Origin: a virus
Lineage: Duplodnaviria; Heunggongvirae; Uroviricota; Caudoviricetes
Virus record (IMG/VR): IMGVR_UViG_2690316028_000003
Span: 1 to 19,137 of that record
Reading direction: 5' to 3' (one strand)
Length of the DNA: 19,137 bases
The stretch's first letter is position 1, and each line of letters begins with the position of its first letter. Below are positions 1,141-19,049 of the stretch, one piece after another. The position numbers and the translations under genes were made by a program. The notes beneath the pieces are model-generated. The model was given only the letters and a program-made list of their open reading frames with translations. It was not told where the DNA came from and did not search any database.

Positions 1141-1583
1141 GACTGCACTCCTTTGCGAATTTGGTAGGCATGGACGCGCATTATGTCGATTGCCTTCGAT
1201 GTGACAGGATGCTGATGGTTCATCATCGCAATGACTGTGTTAATCGCTGAATCCACACCCTGCGCCCGCACTTCAGCCAGGAAAGCGTCGGTGGCTGGGG
1301 TTTCTAACTTCTTGGTGGTTGTATCAAACTCAAACAACTTAACCACGTCATCAAACAGGACATAATCGCCATCAGGATCTTCAGTCATGTCAGCGCCACA
1401 ATCCTGACCGAACGAGTCGCAACCATCAATATCAAGCTCGTATCGCTTAAGGTTTGCGATATTTGATAAATTCAACGCCAGTACAGCAAGGTCATAAACC
1501 TCGTCAACGGTATACCCTGCACCATGCCCATACATTTCAATGCGCGATATGATTTCTTCTACTCGTTGTTTTGTGATTGTCAT
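1137..1583 (-). CDS. hypothetical acidic protein (148 aa)
   Basis: ORF track; start ATG overlaps stop of the HNH gene 1580..2284; no recognised domain. Confidence 0.6.
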   Translation of the reverse strand: MTITKQRVEEIISRIEMYGHGAGYTVDEVYDLAVLALNLSNIANLKRYELDIDGCDSFGQDCGADMTEDPDGDYVLFDDVVKLFEFDTTTKKLETPATDAFLAEVRAQGVDSAINTVIAMMNHQHPVTSKAIDIMRVHAYQIRKGVQS

Positions 1584-2284
1584 TTTTGATCACATCCTTT
1601 GCGAAGCTGGGCATCGGTATTGATGCGACTAAAATAGAATCCGAATACTTTCTTCCATGGCTTAACAACAGCGTCCCTGATTGAGTTTGGGTTAAATCCA
1701 GCCTCGATGGCCTGTTTGCTGTCAAAGAACACATACCCAAAACCTTCCTCGTTCTCAGCGCAGACTGGACCTTTATACGATCCGTGTTTTCTTCCCCCGG
1801 CCAGACCTGTTCTATATGCGTGCTGAGTGTTGCCCGCTACCGTCGTCCACTCCAGGTTTGAAACATCATTGTTTTGTTTATTCCCGTCTATATGGTTAAT
1901 TACGTGCTCATCAGAAGGCTTAGGGCCGAGAAAGTTTTCAGCAACTAATCGGTGGATGTTCACGCCTTTTAGTTTTCCTTCAAGCTCCAGCCTAACGAAT
2001 AAATACTGATTTCTGTTCTTGCCGCGCATGGTTGGGTTTAATTGCTTTAGTTCGCCAGAGGCCAATGAGAAAATGAGCCCCTTTGAGGTGATGAAATAGC
2101 GATACTTAAAACCAAAAATCTCTTTCACATCGCCAAATAAGTCAGCCAGCGCCGCGCACTTGGCCTCCGCTTCAGCAAATTTACGCACCAGATATTCAGC
2201 GTTTGTTTCGTTAACCTTTAAGTCTCGCGGGATGCATTTTCCTTTCAGAAATCCATCCATCTCAATTAGTGACATTTGTTTCAT
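1580..2284 (-). CDS. HNH homing endonuclease (NUMOD4-like N-terminus plus HNH_3 domain)
   Basis: Translation contains [24 protein letters not shown] (NUMOD4-like) and [11 protein letters not shown]...[19 protein letters not shown] (HNH_3 motif H..N..DN....NLE); embedded by ATGA overlaps between neighbours. Confidence 0.75.
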
Positions 2285-2787: not shown

Positions 2788-3270
2788 TTATTTGATAAGA
2801 AGTGAAGGTTTCCCAACTTTGAGTTGAGCGCCGGGGATATTTATTCCTGCTTTTAGTTGGTGTTTGATTGCCAGTTTGTCGGCTTTAATTGTCGTTTCAA
2901 ACTCAACGTATTCAGGAGGAAGGGCGCTTGAGTCGATTATTTCTACAATTTCTGACGGTTTGCGGATTGTTACCTGGTGAATACCTGCTCGAATATTTTT
3001 CTTGCCAACCATTTCAAGCGATGACGCTATATATGATTTGATGCTGTCAATCTTATTTTGGATTACTGCGGCTCGCTCATTCAGTGACTTTGCCTCTTCC
3101 TTGAGGCGTTCAGCATAACCAGATTCATTTTTAATGACGGAAAGAAGTTGCTCTATTTTATCGGTAAATTCTCCTTCCATGCCTTCTATTGTGTCAGCAA
3201 TCATCTCTGGTTCTAAATCTGAATCCATCAATTTTGCGTATTCATTGGCAATTTCATACAGTTTGCTCAC
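2788..3270 (-). CDS. Siphovirus Gp157-family protein (RecT-associated, function unknown)
   Basis: ORF track frame 2788..3276; family assigned from recalled similarity and position immediately downstream of recT; likely start is GTG at 3270 preceded by GGAGG 6 nt upstream (track start at 3276 is TTG). Confidence 0.55.
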   Translation of the reverse strand: MSKLYEIANEYAKLMDSDLEPEMIADTIEGMEGEFTDKIEQLLSVIKNESGYAERLKEEAKSLNERAAVIQNKIDSIKSYIASSLEMVGKKNIRAGIHQVTIRKPSEIVEIIDSSALPPEYVEFETTIKADKLAIKHQLKAGINIPGAQLKVGKPSLLIK

Positions 3271-4168
3271 TGGCAACCTCCAGTTTCGCTTTGCATTCTA
3301 TGTAAATGGCTTGTACGTTCTGCTGCAATTTCATTCCAGACGTCAGGCGATATGCTTCTGCAAAATATCGCTTCAAATCATCCATGTTTTCTGCCTGAGC
3401 CATTTCATCGCAAAGAAGTTGTACTTTATCCATTATTTCCTGCTGGCGTTTCCGTTCATCTTCGCGGATATCTTCCTCTGATTTGTGCGGCATAACTGGT
3501 TCAGTCCACACACCTTCTTCTTCGTTTAGTACGTGAATAGCACTATCAAGACGTGATGCCTTAGGCCAATACTTGCTTGCACGCTTTACGACCGTCTTTC
3601 GCGCCATCTCATTCCAGTGATTTACCCATGGTCCTTTATCGCTGAATGCCGCCTTGCTTGTTTTCCTTACAGCCTCAATTTCAGCCAGACTCATCTCTTC
3701 CGTTAGATAATCACCTGCTGGCGTCTTAACTGTGCAGTAAACGCCAACGATATCACCACGATCACCGAAGGCGTTGTATTTATGGGTTGGTGCTTTATCA
3801 AGCCCGTTTGACTCATAGGTATCGTTAGCATGAACAAGTTTTGCCTGACCCCATGAGATAACACCAGACTCCATTGCAATATGGAGCAATCCCATATAGC
3901 TGATATCAAGGCAAACCATGCCGTCGCGCGGAACCAGATAAGCCAGTTTGCTGGCCGGGTTTAAGGTGATGCCGATCGCCGCAACGTTGATGATAGCGTT
4001 CTGTGCGCTGGTCGGATTTGCCAGTGCTGTTTTAGCCAGGTAATCATTTTTCTGGAAATACTGAATTGCAAACTGGCTTTCCTTAGCCCATGTGACTGAT
4101 TGGTCTGTAACCGCCCCAACAAAGAGCGGCTCTTGCTGTTTAACGAACTCAACAATGCTCATGCTCAT
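3254..4168 (-). CDS. recT: RecT-family single-strand annealing recombinase
   Basis: 304 aa; segment ...KGPWVNHWNEMARKTVVKRASKYWP matches the conserved RecT core (GPWV.HW.EMA.KT...R..KY.P) as I recall it from E. coli Rac RecT; sits in the bet position downstream of gam. Confidence 0.85.
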   Translation of the reverse strand: MSMSIVEFVKQQEPLFVGAVTDQSVTWAKESQFAIQYFQKNDYLAKTALANPTSAQNAIINVAAIGITLNPASKLAYLVPRDGMVCLDISYMGLLHIAMESGVISWGQAKLVHANDTYESNGLDKAPTHKYNAFGDRGDIVGVYCTVKTPAGDYLTEEMSLAEIEAVRKTSKAAFSDKGPWVNHWNEMARKTVVKRASKYWPKASRLDSAIHVLNEEEGVWTEPVMPHKSEEDIREDERKRQQEIMDKVQLLCDEMAQAENMDDLKRYFAEAYRLTSGMKLQQNVQAIYIECKAKLEVASEQTV

Positions 4169-4170
4169 CG

Positions 4171-4467
4171 TTACTGTCCCTCATCAATATCTGTTTGGTG
4201 GCGAGCAATTGTCTCTGCCATGTAGCGAATAAATTCAGCGGCCCTTTCCTGAAACTCGACGTCATCATCGAATGCTTTGGAAATGGCATTCTTGCTGGCC
4301 CCGCGACGTTGCAACTCGTCAACGCACAACGATTCCAGTTTGCTCTGTGGCAATCCTTTTTCTAGGTCATCAGCCAGTTCAGATTCACGCTCTTCTCTGG
4401 CTATTTGCTGATAATGGCGCGTCCAGTTCTGCGCCTCGATACGGTCTTGAACGAGATATGCAGCCAT
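4171..4467 (-). CDS. gam: host-nuclease (RecBCD) inhibitor Gam, short form
   Basis: From ATG 4467 (AGGAG SD 6 nt upstream): [41 protein letters not shown]...[34 protein letters not shown], near-identical to lambda GamS; ORF track offers an upstream ATG at 4596 (GamL-like extension) that overlaps the preceding gene by 50 nt. Confidence 0.8.
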
Positions 4468-4546
4468 AATAGGCTCCTGAAATTTGGTTGTGCGCTGCCC
4501 GTCTGCGATAGCCGGACGAGTAGGGGTAATGGGTGTTTGGTGTGGT

Positions 4547-4789
4547 TTACTTGCCGAGTGCCTTGTCGATGGCGGAACGAGCCATATCAAACTCATCTGT
4601 TTGACGGTCTGCTACTCTAACTACAGCCTGCAGAGCTTCCAGTAATTCAGGCACTGCAGTAATGAGAGTCTTGTTTTCCTTGCTCGTCATTTCAAGTGGA
4701 TATCCCTTTCCAAAGACTATGTGATGCTTGTTTCCCAAGCCCTCTTCATCCCAAAACCACGGACCGGGAGTTCCTTTAAATTCGCTCAT
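4547..4789 (-). CDS. small protein, Ead/Ea22-like C-terminal-domain family (paralog of 6341..6619)
   Basis: ORF track; motifs [28 protein letters not shown] shared with the 6341..6619 product; AGGAAG SD; family name is from recall. Confidence 0.55.
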
Positions 4790-7820: not shown

Positions 7821-8462
7821 TCAGGAGAATTTCATCATCATCTGCACTGCTACGCCGATTATCTTGCAGTTGCCGTCGATTGGGATCAACGGATAGGCAG
7901 GGTTAAGCCCTTTCAGGTATTTGTTACCGCCATCAATGATTAGCTTCTTGAACGTGGCTTCATTAGCATCTGTCAGCTTCGCAACTACCAGGCTTCCATT
8001 AACGGCTTCCTTTCCAGTGTCGAACAGAACCAGCATACCCTCAGGAACGCTAAGGCCGGTAGGAGCTGTCATTGAGTCGCCCTGAACCCTGAGCCAGAAG
8101 GCGTCACCGACAACGTGACAATCTGATTCATACCACTCATCCACTGCCTGAGGGTTGTACGGCTCTACGGCCTCACTCCATGCACCTGCGCTAACCCAGC
8201 TAATCAACGGAAACTTTTCCCCTGGCTTGTATTGTCCCTGATAGTTGTCGCCAAAAAGCAGTTCTGCCGGAGCGACGCCCAAAGCTTTAGCTATTACCTC
8301 TGCGTCATCAACACTAACGCTTCTGGTTCCTGATTCATAGTTGCCGATCCGAGATTGTGAAGCCCAGCCGCAAAGCTCCGCCAGCGCCTTCTGTGAAAGC
8401 CCTTTATCTTCCCGTAATCGCTTGATACGCGCGGCGATAGTTTCTGTTCTGTTCATGCGCAT
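7821..8462 (-). CDS. cI: CI-type prophage repressor (N-terminal HTH, C-terminal LexA-like S24 autopeptidase)
   Basis: 213 aa; HTH segment LSQKALAELCGWASQSRIGNYESG; probable Ala-Gly cleavage site in SAGAW; catalytic QGDSM serine motif and downstream Lys; ATG sits within about 10 nt of a TATAAA -10-like element, suggesting a near-leaderless pRM transcript. Confidence 0.85.
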   Translation of the reverse strand: MRMNRTETIAARIKRLREDKGLSQKALAELCGWASQSRIGNYESGTRSVSVDDAEVIAKALGVAPAELLFGDNYQGQYKPGEKFPLISWVSAGAWSEAVEPYNPQAVDEWYESDCHVVGDAFWLRVQGDSMTAPTGLSVPEGMLVLFDTGKEAVNGSLVVAKLTDANEATFKKLIIDGGNKYLKGLNPAYPLIPIDGNCKIIGVAVQMMMKFS

Positions 8463-8467
8463 TTTAT

Positions 8468-8529
8468 ATCACATTCCGTGGTTTAAGGCTTTACACGATT
8501 TGTGTTGACTATCAATCACAATATGTGTT
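8468..8529. promoter_or_regulatory. OR: three repressor operator sites
   Basis: ATCACA-TTC-CGTGGT (8468..8482), TACACG-ATT-TGTGTT (8492..8506), ATCACA-ATA-TGTGTT (8515..8529); same half-site consensus as OL. Confidence 0.6.
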
Positions 8530-8533
8530 TAAT
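8505..8533 (+). promoter_or_regulatory. pR-like early-right promoter
   Basis: TTGACT (8505..8510), 17-nt spacer, TTTAAT (8528..8533); overlaps the two cro-proximal operators. Confidence 0.55.
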
Positions 8534-8566
8534 AAAGACTGAGTGAACTAGCTCTTAAGGAAACCT

Positions 8567-8782
8567 ATGAACAACATTGCCAACGAACGGAAAAAGCTTG
8601 GCATCACTCAATCTGCGTTAGCAGGCGCGTGTGGCTGGAACCAGTCCCGCTTAGCTAACTACGAGTCAGGTATCCGGACTCCAGATTTAGAGTCGTGCCG
8701 TCGCCTGGTAAAGGCGCTGAATAAATTGGGGAGCAAGACAACGCTAGATGGCTTGTTCCCGCCGGAACACAAAGCCGCTTAA
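8567..8782 (+). CDS. cro: Cro-like HTH regulator
   Basis: 71 aa; HTH LGITQSALAGACGWNQSRLANYESG; first gene after pR, divergent from cI; AAGGAA SD. Confidence 0.75.
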   Translation: MNNIANERKKLGITQSALAGACGWNQSRLANYESGIRTPDLESCRRLVKALNKLGSKTTLDGLFPPEHKAA

Positions 8783-8790
8783 GACATTCC

Positions 8791-8822
8791 CGCTCTTACA
8801 CATCCCCGCCCTGAAAAAGGGC
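8791..8822 (+). promoter_or_regulatory. nutR (boxA plus boxB)
   Basis: CGCTCTTACACA (boxA, 8791..8802) and GCCCTGAAAAAGGGC (boxB, 8808..8822); the stretch from here to cII appears essentially lambda-identical. Confidence 0.85.
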
Positions 8823-8901
8823 ATCAAATTAAACCACACCTATGGTGTATGCATTTATTTGCATACATTCAATCAATTGTTATCTAAGGAAATACTTACA
8901 T

Positions 8902-9180
8902 ATGGTTCGTGCAAACAAACGCAACGAGGCTCTACGAATCGAGAGTGCGTTGCTTAACAAAATCGCAATGCTTGGAACTGAGAAGACAGCGGAAGCTGTG
9001 GGAGTTGATAAGTCGCAGATCAGCAGGTGGAAGAGGGATTGGATTCCAAAGTTCTCAATGCTGCTTGCTGTTCTTGAATGGGGTGTTGAAGACGAGGAGT
9101 TGGCGGAACTGGCTAAGAAAGTAGCCAGAATGCTGACAAAAGAAAAAGCCCCGAAGAACGGCGAATTCTTCGAGGCCTGA
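8902..9180 (+). CDS. cII: transcriptional activator CII
   Basis: From ATG 8902: MVRANKRNEALRIESALLNKIAMLGTEKTAEAVGVDKSQISRWKRDWIPKFSMLLAVLEWGV..., near-identical to lambda CII over the first roughly 60 residues; track start at 8842 is an upstream in-frame Met. Confidence 0.9.
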   Translation: MVRANKRNEALRIESALLNKIAMLGTEKTAEAVGVDKSQISRWKRDWIPKFSMLLAVLEWGVEDEELAELAKKVARMLTKEKAPKNGEFFEA

Positions 9181-9214
9181 TGTAGAAAGACTGGATCAAT
9201 CCACAGGAGTAATT

Positions 9215-9376
9215 ATGACAAAACGTCGTAAGAAATACCAGGAAAAAGAAGAGATTCGACACCCTGATTCACCTGAGGGATTAGTGGTAGCCGCAGCAAA
9301 TAACAGGGCGTTCGCAGAGCGCCTTGTTGGTGTTTACAGACTAGCCAAAGCAGGAGTGAAACATGGGCGTCGTTAA
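9215..9376 (+). CDS. small basic hypothetical protein (53 aa)
   Basis: Manual translation [53 protein letters not shown]; AGGAG SD 5 nt upstream; overlaps O start by 14 nt. Confidence 0.35.
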   Translation: MTKRRKKYQEKEEIRHPDSPEGLVVAAANNRAFAERLVGVYRLAKAGVKHGRR

Positions 9377-10184
9377 GTTAGCTGATTACAGGCCTCAACT
9401 GGAGGTCGTGGAGCATCGCGTGGCAGATACCGAAGATGGTTTCATGCGCGTTGCTAACGAGATTACCGACAGTCTGCTGATGGCTGATTTAACCGTCCGG
9501 CAGATGAAGGTGATGCTCGCTATCATGCGCAAGACATACGGATTCAATAAGCCGATGGATCGACTCACAAACACGCAGATAGCAGCCATGACAGGTATTC
9601 ATCACACTCATGTTTGCGCTGCCAAGCGCCAGCTTATTGAGCGTAAATTCCTCATTGCTGATGGCGTGAAAATCGGAGTGAACAAGGTGGTTTCTCAGTG
9701 GATTAGCCAGGACAGCTTAACATTAGCTAAAACAGCTAATAAAACATTAGCCAAGTCGGCTAATGGGTATAAGCCAAGTCAGCTAAACACAAAAGACAAT
9801 ATACAAAAGACAATAAATACAAATACCCCCTTACCCCCTAACGGGGGTGGCGATGGGCAGGTTAAACCTGAACGTCGCAAGGCAGAACGAATCGACTACG
9901 AATCCTTCCTGAACGCCTACAACACCGAAGTCGGTGACAGACTGCCACACGCTGTTTCGGTCAACGAGAAACGCAAACGCCGCCTGAAGAAAATCATCCC
10001 GCAACTGAAAACGCCAAACGTGGACGGTTTCAGAGCGTATGTCAGGGCGTTTGTGCATCAGGCCAAGCCGTTTTACTTCGGAGACAACGACACGGGCTGG
10101 ACGGCCGATTTTGATTACCTGTTGAGGGAAGATTCGTTAACGGGAGTACGGGAAGGGAAGTTTGCAGACAGGGGGATTTCATGA
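9363..10184 (+). CDS. O: replication initiator, lambda O-like N-terminal domain
   Basis: N-terminal region ...[37 protein letters not shown]... resembles lambda O (DLTKRQFKVLLAILRKTYGWNKPMDRITDSQL); AGGAG SD; iterons inside the gene. Confidence 0.8.
9703..9825. repeat. origin-like iterons (four copies) plus AT-rich tract inside the O gene
   Basis: TTAGCCAGGACAGCTTAA (9703..9720), TTAGCTAAAACAGCTAA (9723..9739), TTAGCCAAGTCGGCTAA (9747..9763), AAGCCAAGTCAGCTAA (9771..9786), each with internal dyad TTAGC...GCTAA, followed by an A/T-rich run acacaaaagacaatatacaaaagacaataaatacaaata. Confidence 0.55.
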
Positions 10185-11557
10185 GACAGGATATCGAAGC
10201 GAGCGTTATCGGTGGCCTGCTGATTGGTGGATTAACGCCAACCGCCAGCGACGTTCTGGCAACGCTGGAGCCGGAAGCGTTTTCAATTCCGCTCTACCGG
10301 AAAGCCTTCGAGGTTATCCGCAAGCAGGCGAGAAACAGAAACCTAATCGATGCGCTGATGGTTGCCGAGGCGTGCGGAGAGGAGCATTTCACGTCAATCC
10401 TGATGACCAGCAAAAACTGCCCGAGTGCCGCAAACCTGAAGGGATATGCCGGAATGGTCGCGGATAACTATCACCGCCGTCTGGTGCTGGAAATCATGGA
10501 TGAAATGCGTGAACCAATTCAGAGCGGAACCATCGACGCATCGAGTCAGGCGATGGATGAACTTGTAAAGCGTCTCTCAGCCATCAGAAAGCCCCGTAAC
10601 GAGGTTAAACCGATACGGTTAGGGGAAATCATCACTGACTACACTGACACGCTTGACAGGCGTCTGAGGAACGGAGAAGAGTCAGATACCCTGAAGACCG
10701 GAATCGAAGAACTTGACGCCATCACCGGAGGGATGAACGCGGAAGACCTTGTGATAATCGCTGCTCGTCCTGGTATGGGGAAAACCGAACTGGCGCTGAA
10801 GATTGCCGAAGGCGTTGCAAGCCGCGTTATTCCTGGTTCTGACGTCCGGCGCGGGGTATTGATTTTCTCAATGGAAATGAGCGCATTGCAGATTGCAGAG
10901 CGAAGCATTGCCAACGCCGGGAGGATGTCGGTTAGCGTACTGCGAAATCCTGCATCGATGGATGACGAGGGCTGGGCACGTGTTGCTAACGGCATGAGTC
11001 AGCTTGCAGATTTGGATGTATGGGTAGTCGATGCCTCGCGGTTATCGGTCGAAGAAATACGCTCAATCGCAGAACGGCACAAACAGGAAAATCCAAACCT
11101 GTCACTCATCATGGCGGATTATCTTGGCCTGATTGAGAAGCCGAAAGCAGACCGCAACGACCTTGCAATTGCTCACATCTCCGGAAGCCTGAAGGCGATG
11201 GCGAAAGACCTGAAAACGCCTGTTATCTCCCTGAGTCAGCTTTCGCGCGATGTTGAGAAGCGACCAAACAAACGCCCGACAAACGCAGATTTGCGTGATT
11301 CAGGAAGCATTGAACAGGATGCAGACTCAATCATCATGCTCTATCGGGAAGCGGTATATGACGAGAACAGTAGCGCCGCGCCATTTGCTGAAATCATTGT
11401 GACGAAAAACCGTTTTGGCTCGCTTGGTACGGTTTACCAGCGGTTCTGCAACGGACACTTTGTTGCATGTGACCAGGATGAAGCCAGACAGATTTGCACA
11501 ACATCAAATGCACCCGCTGCACGTGGCAGACGATATGCACAAGGGGCTGACGTATGA
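10181..11557 (+). CDS. DnaB-family replicative DNA helicase (P22 gp12-like)
   Basis: 458 aa; Walker [10 protein letters not shown]; DnaB-like N-terminal domain; ATG overlaps O stop (ATGA). Confidence 0.85.
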
Positions 11558-11658
11558 CCATCTACATCACTGAGCTAATAGCAGGGTTATCGTTACTAAT
11601 GGTTCTTACTGTATATATTATTAAGTATATTCTTTATGCGAATAAAAAAACTAATTGA
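11554..11658 (+). CDS. possible small hydrophobic membrane peptide (34 aa)
   Basis: Manual translation [34 protein letters not shown]; ATG overlaps helicase TGA (ATGA); one predicted TM helix with a basic C-terminus; overlaps the start of the next HNH gene in another frame. Confidence 0.2.
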
Positions 11659-12247
11659 TCACGATGAGCTTCTGTCAACATTATCATATGACTCAGAAAC
11701 AGGAATATTTAAATGGCTAAAAACAAATTCAGTAGTAAGAGTAAAAGGTAGTATTGCTGGAGGTGTTAGTGGTGGTTATATATGCATTAGCATAAATAAT
11801 GTTTTGTATTATGCGCATAGACTTGCTTGGTTCTATGTATACAAAAAATGGCCTCCTAAGTTTATTGATCATGTAAATGGGAACAGACTTGACAATAGGA
11901 TTTCAAATCTAAGACTGGCAACAGAAGAGCAGAATGCAAGAAACATTGTAGGGAATAGATTAAACACATCCGGTGCAATTGGAGTGTCTTGGTATAAGCC
12001 AACTGGCAGGTGGAAGTCTTATGTTGGTTATAAAAATAAGACAATATCGTTAGGGTATTTCGATAGCAAAGAAGATGCAGCATTCATAGCAGCACTAGCA
12101 AGAAAGAAACTATATGGAACTTATGCGAGTAAAGCACTTAATTGCGAGCATGAGCTTTTATCTCAATTTAATAATGATGAGGATAAACTTGCGGAATATC
12201 TTAAGGAAAAATCTAAAAGGACTCGAAATCGTGTTAAAAACAGATAA
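11636..12247 (+). CDS. HNH homing endonuclease (HNH_3 plus AP2-like DNA-binding domain)
   Basis: YYAHRLAWFYVYKKWPPKFIDHVNGNRLDNRISNLRLATEEQN (HNH_3) then GVSWYKPTGRWKSYVGYKNKTISLGYFDSKEDAAFIAA (AP2-like); visibly AT-rich compared with the flanking helicase and ninB; no clear SD. Confidence 0.75.
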   Translation: MRIKKLIDHDELLSTLSYDSETGIFKWLKTNSVVRVKGSIAGGVSGGYICISINNVLYYAHRLAWFYVYKKWPPKFIDHVNGNRLDNRISNLRLATEEQNARNIVGNRLNTSGAIGVSWYKPTGRWKSYVGYKNKTISLGYFDSKEDAAFIAALARKKLYGTYASKALNCEHELLSQFNNDEDKLAEYLKEKSKRTRNRVKNR

Positions 12248-12295: not shown

Positions 12296-12736
12296 ATGAA
12301 AAAACTAACCTTTGAAATTCGATCCCCAGCACATCAGCAAAACGCTATTCACGCGGTGCAGCAAATTCTTCCAGACCCAACCAAGCCAATCGTAGTGATC
12401 ATTCATGAGCGCAACCGCAGCTTAGACCAAAACAGGAAGCTATGGGCCTGCTTAGGTGACGTCTCTCGTCAGGTTGAATGGCATGGTCGCTGGCTGGATG
12501 CAGAAAGCTGGAAGTGTGTGTTTACCGCAGCATTAAAGCAGCAGGATGTTGTTCCTAACCTTGCCGGGAATGGCTTTGTGGTAATAGGCCAGTCAACCAG
12601 CAGGATGCGTGTAAGCGAATTTGCGGAGCTATTAGAGCTTATACAGGCATTCGGTACAGAGCGTGGCGTTAAGTGGTCAGACGAAGCGAGACTGGCTCTG
12701 GAGTGGAAAGCGAGATGGGGAGATCGGGCTGCATGA
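12296..12736 (+). CDS. ninB: NinB (Orf-family recombination mediator)
   Basis: From ATG 12296: MKKLTFEIRSPAHQQNAIHAVQQILPDPTKPIVV...ARLALEWKARWGDRAA, near-identical to lambda NinB; track start 12278 is an upstream TTG. Confidence 0.9.
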   Translation: MKKLTFEIRSPAHQQNAIHAVQQILPDPTKPIVVIIHERNRSLDQNRKLWACLGDVSRQVEWHGRWLDAESWKCVFTAALKQQDVVPNLAGNGFVVIGQSTSRMRVSEFAELLELIQAFGTERGVKWSDEARLALEWKARWGDRAA

Positions 12737-13095
12737 CTATCAAATCAAATACGGCAGCGTCAGATAGGTATCGGCTTATTGAGGATTATCTGTATTTAGA
12801 CGGAGATACAGTCAGATACAAAAAGGACTCGCTAAAACACCCCAACCACAGCCACCGGGCCGGAGATGAAATTAAAACATCGATAAATGGATCTGGGTAT
12901 AGACAGGTGTGTTTTGCAGGCATTCAGATGTTTGTTCACGTAGTTGTTTTTGCGCTGCACAACAAAAGAATGCCATTGAAAAATATTGACCATATTAACG
13001 GAAACAGGCTGGACAATTCCCCAAAAAATCTTAGGGAGGCAAGCCGGATAGCAAACAGCCGAAATCAGAAAACTAAGTTCAATAGCCGTTCTTGA
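12733..13095 (+). CDS. HNH endonuclease, HNH_3 domain only; an in-frame TGA separates it from an AP2-like domain that continues to 13260
   Basis: From ATG 12733 (overlaps ninB stop): MTIKSNTAASDRYRLIEDYLYLDGDT...VHVVVFALHNKRMPLKNIDHINGNRLDNSPKNLREASRIANSRNQ; after TGA at 13093..13095 the same frame stays open for 54 codons ([54 protein letters not shown]). Confidence 0.6.
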   Translation: MTIKSNTAASDRYRLIEDYLYLDGDTVRYKKDSLKHPNHSHRAGDEIKTSINGSGYRQVCFAGIQMFVHVVVFALHNKRMPLKNIDHINGNRLDNSPKNLREASRIANSRNQKTKFNSRS

Positions 13096-13960: not shown

Positions 13961-14361
13961 CAATGGATTATTCACAGTTAAGTGATTTTGAAATTAACGT
14001 GGCGGTATTCGAAGCCATTCATAACGGATCACCGGATTACAAAGAAGGTGAGAATGGCGATATGGTGTTTGTCTCATTTGAGGGAGACATTGTAAACGGA
14101 GACGCAGTTGAAGTAGAAGTTGAGCGCGGATCCTTTAACCCATGCGCAAACCCAGCAGACGCATGGCCGATCATCACTGAAAACAAAATTAGCACCATGT
14201 GGATGACAGCGGAAAAAGAATGGTGCGCATGGTCAGGAGGTGATTTAGAGGAAGGTTGTTGGGAATGGGAAAATATTCCTGGCTACTACTTCTGCGGTGA
14301 ATCTCCACTCCGCGCCGCCATGATTGTATTTCTCATGATGCAGGACGCCAATAATGCTTAG
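13957..14361 (+). CDS. ninX: NinX-like protein
   Basis: From ATG 13957 (ATGA overlap with ninE stop); sits between ninE and ninF as ninX does in P22; Cys/Trp-rich C-terminus; family assignment is from recall. Confidence 0.5.
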
Positions 14362-18578: not shown

Positions 18579-19049
18579 ATGACCCAGCATATTGGCGTAA
18601 AACTGATTAACGCCTTTCCGATGACGAGACAGGCATATAACGATTTTCGTGGCTGGCAGCTTCCTGCCGGAGAAAACGGCGAGGATGAAGGCTATCTGGT
18701 TGAATATCTTGATGGCGGAAAACCTAACACCGATCGCTTTGATGGCTACGTTAGCTGGAGTCCAAAAGAAGTATTCGAAAAGGCTTATCGTCCGGTATCA
18801 GGGCTAAGTTTCGGCCTTGCCATTGAAGCGCTCAAGTTGGGGAATAAAGTTGCCCGTGCTGGCTGGAATGGTAAGGGGATGTATCTGTTCATTATCCAGC
18901 AGAATGCTTGGGGGTTTGAGTGTGACCTGGACGGAGTTAATGGCCTTGTGACGCTGCCATGCATTTGCATGAAGACAGCGGACGATAAATTAGTACCGTG
19001 GCTGGCTAGTCAGACTGATGTTCTAGCAGAAGACTGGCAAATCATTTAA
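18579..19049 (+). CDS. hypothetical late accessory protein with DUF2829-like (Tad2-like) C-terminal domain
   Basis: 156 aa; C-terminal GLSFGLAIEALKLGNKVARAGWNGKGMYLFII...KTADDKLVPWLASQTDVLAEDWQII resembles DUF2829 as I recall it; N-terminal about 70 aa unassigned; follows a terminator with weak SD. Confidence 0.55.
   Translation: MTQHIGVKLINAFPMTRQAYNDFRGWQLPAGENGEDEGYLVEYLDGGKPNTDRFDGYVSWSPKEVFEKAYRPVSGLSFGLAIEALKLGNKVARAGWNGKGMYLFIIQQNAWGFECDLDGVNGLVTLPCICMKTADDKLVPWLASQTDVLAEDWQII

Follow-up and report, generated by a model that had tools for sequence, protein, structure and literature searches.

The segment at positions 9702-9848 of the window (the whole 19,137-nt stretch of viral DNA analyzed here) is, judging from its sequence, very probably the origin of theta replication in a lambdoid phage or prophage of the HK97 type, laid out in the manner of ori-lambda. 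Several features expected of lambdoid origins come together there: a Phage_rep_O gene, dyad iterons of about 18 to 19 bp (three to seven copies being allowed) that are set about two helical turns apart and lie in lambda register, an A+T tract of about 40 bp just downstream, a match between iterons and initiator N-domain, and constraint on the iteron arms. The feature is already known, as a textbook lambdoid origin of HK97-type specificity that is near-identical to those of long-known phages. A first-pass annotation had placed four iterons with internal dyad symmetry and an A/T-rich tract at 9703-9825, inside an O-like gene, and both its coordinates and its description are correct.

In gene content the window corresponds to the early region of a temperate lambdoid phage or prophage (Table 1). 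Its gene order, cI(-), cro, cII, a small open reading frame, O and helicase, agrees with that of the annotated HK97 and mEp213 genomes, and the records of these two phages contain no origin annotation. Rightward transcription through the cro-cII-orf operon (8567-9376) would run into the origin. A consensus scan of 8400-10300 returned no sigma-70-like promoter, so a pR promoter upstream of the origin is assumed from gene order alone. Searches of the whole window with Rfam (gathering thresholds) and ARAGORN gave no structured RNA and no tRNA.

Table 1. Features of the early region and of the putative replication origin, in window coordinates
Feature	Position	Strand	Description or basis
cI-type repressor	7821-8462	-	HTH and Peptidase_S24
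cro	8567-8782	+	ORF; Pfam HTH_3
cII	8902-9180	+	ORF; Pfam Phage_CII
Small HK97 gp53-like ORF	9215-9376	+	ORF; collinear with HK97 and mEp213 annotations
O-like replication initiator gene, 273 aa, HK97 gp54 / P22 gp18 type	9363-10184	+	Contains the putative origin
N-terminal origin-binding domain (predicted), aa 19-113	9417-9701	+	Extent as in Pfam match; winged helix-turn-helix predicted
Predicted recognition helix, aa 81-93 plus aa 80	9600-9641	+	AlphaFold2 model and covariation tables
Iteron 1	9702-9719	.	ATTAGCCAGGACAGCTTA; outer right arm degenerate; aligned with lambda iteron 1
Iteron 2	9722-9739	.	ATTAGCTAAAACAGCTAA; perfect dyad; arm conservation 0.96 (73 related origins)
Iteron 3	9746-9763	.	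ATTAGCCAAGTCGGCTAA; perfect dyad; arm conservation 0.96 (73 related origins)
Iteron 4	9769-9786	.	ATAAGCCAAGTCAGCTAA; outer left arm degenerate
A/T-rich tract, presumed DNA-unwinding element	9787-9825	.	39 nt, 20.5% G+C, + strand A-rich
G+C-rich element beside A/T tract	9824-9848	.	Tandem TACCCCCT x2 and a dyad
O C-terminal domain, ~aa 176-273, presumed helicase-recruiting module	9888-10181	+	
Phage DnaB-like replicative helicase, P22 gp12 / HK97 gp55 type	10181-11557	+	

The gene that encloses the putative origin encodes a protein matching Pfam Phage_rep_O (PF04492; E = 4e-33, aa 19-113). Its stop codon overlaps the start codon of the next gene (10181-10184), the product of which matches Pfam DnaB_C (E = 9e-78) and the DnaB N-terminal domain (E = 4.5e-13); the counterpart in HK97 is annotated as 'similar to DnaB'. 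Since the partner is a phage-encoded DnaB-like helicase, preceded by an O protein with a P22-type C-domain, the module is of the P22 gene 18/gene 12 (HK97 gp54/gp55) type and not of the lambda O/P type, and neither a lambda-like O C-domain nor an adjoining gene for a P-like loader was found.

A repeat search of the window recovered one family of four 18-nt copies, with start-to-start distances of 20, 24, and 23 nt. The four TTAGC-N7-GCTAA repeats that had been reported at intervals of 20 to 24 bp are therefore present, but the stated form is exact in iterons 2 and 3 only; iterons 1 and 4 each depart from the dyad by one mismatch (right arm GCTTA in iteron 1, left arm TAAGC in iteron 4). When up to one mismatch was allowed, TTAGC-N7-GCTAA matched five times in the 19,137-nt window, with four of the matches being the iteron cluster and the fifth a lone site at 9100. 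The expectation from shuffled sequence was 0.61, and none of 200 shuffles reached five matches. The iterons are the codons for aa 114-142 of the initiator and fall between its N- and C-terminal domains; repeats and A/T tract alike are within the initiator coding sequence, as had been claimed.

Alignment with ori-lambda had been named as one way to check the proposed likeness. In a four-way MAFFT DNA alignment of the window, Providencia phage PSTCR7lys, P22, and lambda, the four repeats occupy the same columns as the annotated lambda 'ori iteron 1-4' and are in register with them, with no variation in the A/T-tract core, ACACAAAAGA..TACAAAAGA. The ori-lambda arrangement thus holds at the sequence level, with shared columns, shared 20/24/23 spacing, and an unchanging A/T core, and by this alignment the repeat region is positionally homologous to ori-lambda.

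The A/T-rich stretch described behind the repeats was likewise recovered. It consists of 26 A, 5 T, 6 C, and 2 G in a window of 47.7% G+C, is one of only eight spots this A/T-rich in the whole window, and includes two tandem 14-mers (ACAAAAGACAATAT/A, 9789-9816); the G+C fraction drops to 0.25 over 9780-9819. In 140 of 143 distinct origins, spread over all specificity classes, the last iteron is immediately followed by the motif CACAAAAGA. By megablast, P22 has nothing in common with this O gene except the segment at the A/T tract, nt 417-510. Beside it is a G+C-rich element that codes for a PLPPNGG linker, in which the tandem repeat occupies 9824-9839 and the dyad is formed by ACCCCC (9833-9838) and GGGGGT (9843-9848). 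Of 140 distinct origins, 81 have a dyad of the form C4-5/N3-6/G4-5 located 40 to 54 nt past the first base of the A/T tract, and we infer a role for this element as part of the origin.

Layout bears on a mainly regulatory reading of the iterons, in which their binding of O serves titration, handcuffing, or autoregulation of O and helicase expression and replication is initiated at another place in the genome. Ectopic lambda iterons inhibit the replication of phages of lambda specificity, and both titration and handcuffing have been proposed (PMC3349717). Such roles could coexist with origin function here, but we consider it unlikely that they are the main ones, given that the full succession of iterons, invariant A/T tract, and G+C dyad is present in register with a mapped origin, that the helicase gene adjoins, and that the scan for TTAGC-N7-GCTAA (up to one mismatch) revealed no second iteron cluster in the 19-kb window, where the single site at 9100 was the only other match.

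The initiator was modeled with AlphaFold2, which gave the secondary structure elements H45-59, E65-67, H70-77, H81-93, E97-100, and E103-106, with a pLDDT of 76-87 over aa 41-110 and a mean of 52 over the whole model, which is of modest quality. H81-93 is the third helix of the model, and residues 80-85 (HHTHVC) are therefore at its start; this helix is the predicted recognition helix of the N-domain. A Foldseek search of the PDB with the model returned weak matches (best E = 1.3e-3), all of them winged-helix regulators (MarR, CAP, and IclR), which serve as support for the fold class only, and no PDB entry matched the O protein by sequence at E up to 1. The C-domain was modeled at low confidence from a homologue set composed mostly of truncated or frameshifted fragments of at most 200 aa, a set adequate for aligning the N-domain but without depth over the C-domain. 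Between the two domains, the iterons and A/T tract are translated into a linker (aa 114 to ~155). The residues encoded by the iterons themselves (aa 114-142) mostly have a pLDDT below 50, and the poorly predicted stretch extends to about aa 180, so a requirement of the DNA, rather than of the peptide, appears to fix the sequence of the linker over the iterons and A/T tract.

Conservation among relatives is consistent with such a requirement. From 160 retrieved loci coding for relatives of the O N-domain, origins were picked by the protein motif H.TH of the putative recognition helix and aligned on the A/T-tract motif, with no use made of the repeats, a procedure that avoids circularity. The A/T motif was present in all 83 sequences selected by H.TH, 73 of which were distinct, and N-domain protein identity to the window went down to 48% among these 73 origins. 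Conservation in the iteron arms was 0.93 overall and 0.97 at third codon positions, compared with 0.69 and 0.64 in the iteron centers, 0.72 and 0.72 in the spacers between iterons, and 0.74 and 0.55 over 50 codons of the folded N-domain. In the same set, iterons 2 and 3 were almost always perfect and iterons 1 and 4 had systematically degenerate outer arms, with GCGAA, GCTTA, or GCAAA as the right arm of iteron 1 and TAAGC, TTCGC, or TTTGC as the left arm of iteron 4. This pattern of perfect inner and degenerate outer iterons fits the reported preference of lambda-type O proteins, which bind iterons 2 and 3 best (PMC7466680). Taken together, the conservation figures show that the repeat arms are under nucleotide-level selection beyond what coding needs.

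The same figures make it very unlikely that the repeats merely reflect a recurring linker peptide (TLAKTAN / KTLAKSAN / YKPSQLN) and lack any DNA function. The repeats are indeed in frame and encode a loosely repeated peptide, and low-complexity repeats are frequent in linkers; however, third codon positions are far more conserved in the arms than in the adjacent folded domain (0.97 versus 0.55), each unit is a reverse-complement dyad, a symmetry for which a peptide repeat has no need, the encoded peptide is predicted at low confidence, and quite different peptides occur at the same position and with the same spacing across specificity classes.

Those specificity classes were defined from a wider set of initiators. 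An automatic best-dyad search over the 200 nt following the N-domain found at least three dyad copies in nearly all of 110 distinct O genes, with 20/24/23 spacing in most classes. Across 121 non-redundant O genes, residues 80-83 predicted the half-site class without exception: HHTH (the window), HYTH, and HFTH occur with TTAGC; PVKR (lambda) with TCCCT or CCCCT; PRQK with TGTCA; SRQN with TGTCT; and the P22 group, comprising AATK, APTK, DSTK (xxTK), and LPHK, with TTACC. In these 121 genes the probability of sharing an iteron was 1.00 given the same helix motif and 0.065 given different motifs, a covariation that is not fully independent evidence, since the iterons abut the N-domain and have the A/T tract, the sole conserved target for recombination, on their downstream side, and therefore co-inheritance alone would keep helix and iterons together. 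Adjusted mutual information with iteron class was 0.85 for the helix motif and 0.20 for the C-domain cluster, with the latter being a poor predictor of iteron class (0.56 versus 0.29). Binding of the N-domain to the iterons has indirect support, from selection on the arms and from covariation with the start of the recognition helix.

Least probable of all is a reading of the dyads as RNA or single-stranded DNA hairpins (a terminator, or a structure sensed by host defense) instead of duplex binding sites. In its favor, iteron 3 resembles a terminator on the minus strand, single-stranded DNA of iterons 2 and 3 forms hairpins at -4.6 and -7.6 kcal/mol (z = -4.2 and -7.1), and the P2 OLD defense protein has been proposed, in a 2026 preprint that lists HK97 as OLD sensitive, to be activated by hairpins of melted lambda iterons. 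Against it, iterons 1 and 4 have no fold (-0.4 and -0.7 kcal/mol, like shuffles) yet keep conserved inner arms, selection for pairing would not fix an arm sequence that tracks a protein helix, and any sensing by a defense system would follow from origin function without being the reason for the repeats. The terminator-like match on the minus strand of iteron 3 most likely arises incidentally, from a dyad that has an A run behind it. On the evidence given with each, the control-only, peptide-repeat, and hairpin readings all rank low against a replication origin.

The origin also appears to be modular. Each iteron class was found with several C-domain types, and the compiled sequences suggest that iteron sequence assorts almost freely with the O C-domain. 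Megablast comparisons revealed natural hybrids joined at the A/T tract: in BTP1, a P22 N-domain with its iterons is joined to a C-domain of the window's type, and in 933W-type Stx2a phages, an N-domain and repeats unrelated to those of the window are joined to a C-domain with 95.5% DNA identity to it. In the survey, the lambda-type C-domain always precedes a lambda P-like gene, and the window's C-domain type precedes a DnaB-like helicase in all but two cases. These observations support the classical two-module picture, in which origin specificity resides in the N-domain together with the iterons and the choice of helicase or loader depends on the C-domain.

We lean, if only slightly, toward a general read-out rule in which the identity of the 5-bp half-site is determined by four residues where the recognition helix begins, with the 20/24/23 spacing and the A/T core fixed across classes. 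At least six or seven specificity classes can be distinguished (TTAGC, TTACC, TCCCT, TGTCA, TGTCT, TTCCC, and a TGTAGC variant). If true, the rule would make cross-interference groups of enterobacterial prophages predictable from sequence and the specificity of O switchable by a swap of a few residues. As far as we found, it would extend the classical comparison of lambda, 434, phi80, and 82 and would not be a new kind of system.

A model of initiation at this origin is proposed, largely by homology to lambda. Dimers of the O-like protein would occupy each of the four dyads, with one winged-helix N-domain per TTAGC/GCTAA half-site, and contact with the half-site would be made through the start of helix 3 (residues ~80-85, HHTHVC), as covariation and homology to lambda O suggest. 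The bound dimers, 20, 24, and 23 bp apart, may form an O-some-like complex that bends the DNA, as in lambda. The 39-bp A/T tract would then melt under the stress of negatively supercoiled, rightward-transcribed DNA, again by homology to lambda. Finally, the O C-domain may bring in the adjacent phage DnaB-like helicase, whereas lambda hijacks host DnaB through P; this last step is suggested by gene adjacency and by the co-assortment of C-domain with the type of the next gene.

Correct annotation is the main value of these findings, marking both the origin of the prophage-like segment and its HK97 replication-specificity type. From the specificity type one can predict the co-resident lambdoid phages that might vie for this initiator or suffer inhibition by it. 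Several Shiga-toxin phages, in which replication drives toxin gene dosage, have this origin as well. In addition, the table of helix residues against half-sites could guide specificity-swap experiments.

Iterons of the plasmid type (Rep/RepA) are direct repeats that are bound by monomers and usually work together with DnaA boxes. The window resembles plasmid iteron origins (pSC101, R6K, RK2, and P1) in having an initiator-binding repeat array beside an A/T-rich unwinding element, and winged-helix initiators acting on repeats next to such an element have been described in general terms for origins of this kind (PMC5043065). It differs from them in that each unit is itself a dyad and the origin lies inside the initiator coding sequence. 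No DnaA box was found within several kb of the repeats, with TTWTNCACA occurring only at 13968 and 17124, which is not above chance; with dyad units and no DnaA boxes nearby, a plasmid-type iteron origin was set aside.

The arrangement is documented for lambda, in which dimers of O occupy four inverted-repeat iterons midway along gene O and open an adjoining 40-bp A+T region (PMC5043065; PMC7466680), and data on initiator binding and unwinding have been obtained with the O proteins of lambda and Stx phages (PMC7466680; PMC5043065). The window shares with ori-lambda a homologous position in the gene, four dyads of ~18 bp, and the 5-N7-5 half-site geometry, and the iterons in the lambda record start at 39034, 39054, 39078, and 39101 (span 39034-39118), which gives the same 20/24/23 spacing. 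By BLASTP, the two O proteins are 42% identical over aa 17-149 only, with no similarity beyond aa 149, and the lambda-like part of the window's O appears to be its N-terminal half only. The differences are equally clear. Lambda has TCCCT half-sites and a PVKR helix start where the window has TTAGC and HHTH, its O C-terminal domain is unrelated to that of the window and is partnered by the P loader instead of a DnaB-like helicase, and it is without the small gp53-like ORF that in the window lies between oop and O.

The gp18 protein of P22 is 51% identical to the window's O over 259 aa, C-domain included, and P22 has the same module of O-like initiator (gene 18) and DnaB-like helicase (gene 12). 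The A/T tract and PLPP linker are near-identical (89.6% DNA identity over 94 nt), and in one P22 record the corresponding part of gene 18 is annotated with a rep_origin ('bi-directional replication origin similar to phage lambda'). Its iterons (TTTACC..GGTAAA) and helix start (APTK) are unlike those of the window, so the two differ in origin specificity. Four different repeats of ~20 bp have been described in P22 gene 18, and such initiators vary with origin specificity (PMC8022706).

The nearest relatives are HK97 and its group. The O gene of the window matches 183 phage records and is 98.5 to 99.1% identical in DNA to those of HK97 (gp54), HK446, mEp213, Nil2, and Stx2-1717, with phage 2851 and ST104 belonging to the same near-identical group. 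In HK97, the iterons and A/T tract are the same over aa 105-170, with one synonymous change further downstream. A literature search for the exact iteron strings, or for experiments on the TTAGC iteron class, gave no match. Of 5,426 complete Escherichia coli genomes, 441 contain the 141-nt origin segment. Any one phage record covers at most 40% of the window, whose mosaic differs elsewhere; in the origin itself there is no difference of substance from the HK97 group, and HK97 is listed as a prototype replication specificity (PMC2629481).

The C-terminal part of the O gene appears in other company in the 933W-type Stx2a phage Stx2_EH0787 (L005 in our survey of related loci, positions 1032-1200). 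The N-terminal domain of the O-like protein in this phage has no relation to Phage_rep_O, and the repeats differ from those of the window, consisting of CCGCACATGA-like units that encode AHEAAQTTAHD-type peptides. This N-terminal part and its repeats are fused to a C-terminal domain 95.5% identical to that of the window's O protein, and the joint between them is the A/T tract together with the PLPPNGG linker. In the window, the G+C-rich dyad is closely followed on its right by a further, imperfect palindrome (GCGATGGGCAGGTT / AACCTGAACGTCGC; 9850-9878), with arms of 14 nt each that are 79% complementary and separated by 1 nt. In phage lambda, a palindrome is located on the right-hand side of the A/T tract.

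Matches to any one phage record extend over 40% of the window at most. The recombination module (2788-4596, minus strand) is a further mosaic difference, encoding Gam, RecT, and Sipho_Gp157 where the best overall match, phage mEp213, has Erf/Abc2. Three separate HNH_3 endonuclease ORFs lie within the 19 kb of the window. Because all three are located at module borders and are missing from the matching places in the annotations of HK97 and mEp213, the two examined, they are possible insertions of free-standing homing endonuclease genes. In the late region, the lysozyme gene is followed downstream by an ORF that carries a Tad2-like domain and is a possible anti-defence gene.

At the 3' end of cII, sequence features point to an antisense RNA unit of the oop type. 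[quoted passage not shown]

Window coordinates of features outside the origin
Feature	Position	Strand	Module or basis
HNH_3 ORF 1	1580-2284	-	HNH_3 domain
Sipho_Gp157	2788-3276	-	recombination module
RecT	3254-4168	-	recombination module
Gam	4171-4596	-	recombination module
oop-like antisense RNA unit	9146-9217	-	promoter/5'-end 28-mer match and terminator-like hairpin
HNH_3 ORF 2	11636-12247	+	HNH_3 and AP2 domains
HNH_3 ORF 3	12673-13095	+	HNH_3 domain; overlaps ninB 3' end
ORF with Tad2-like (Thoeris anti-defence 2) domain	18579-19049	+	PF11195, E = 9e-27

The iterons vary among relatives in both sequence and number. Enterobacter sp. BRE11 (L103; JAUZUX010000010.1) has the sole surveyed O gene with HRTH rather than HHTH at residues 80-83, and the iterons in the origin region after its O N-terminal domain read TGTAGCT-N5-AGCTACA, a half-site that shares the TAGC core with the TTAGC class but differs in the outer base. 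From this single example, one His-to-Arg change may accompany a one-base change in the half-site. In some relatives (L042, L084/L086, L105, L123, L131, and others) the iterons number five to seven rather than four, with seven each in L123 and L131, and the extra iterons are added at intervals of 24 or about 48 nt. These larger arrays resemble the origins of the Stx phages P27 and 933W, which have been described as containing six iterons.
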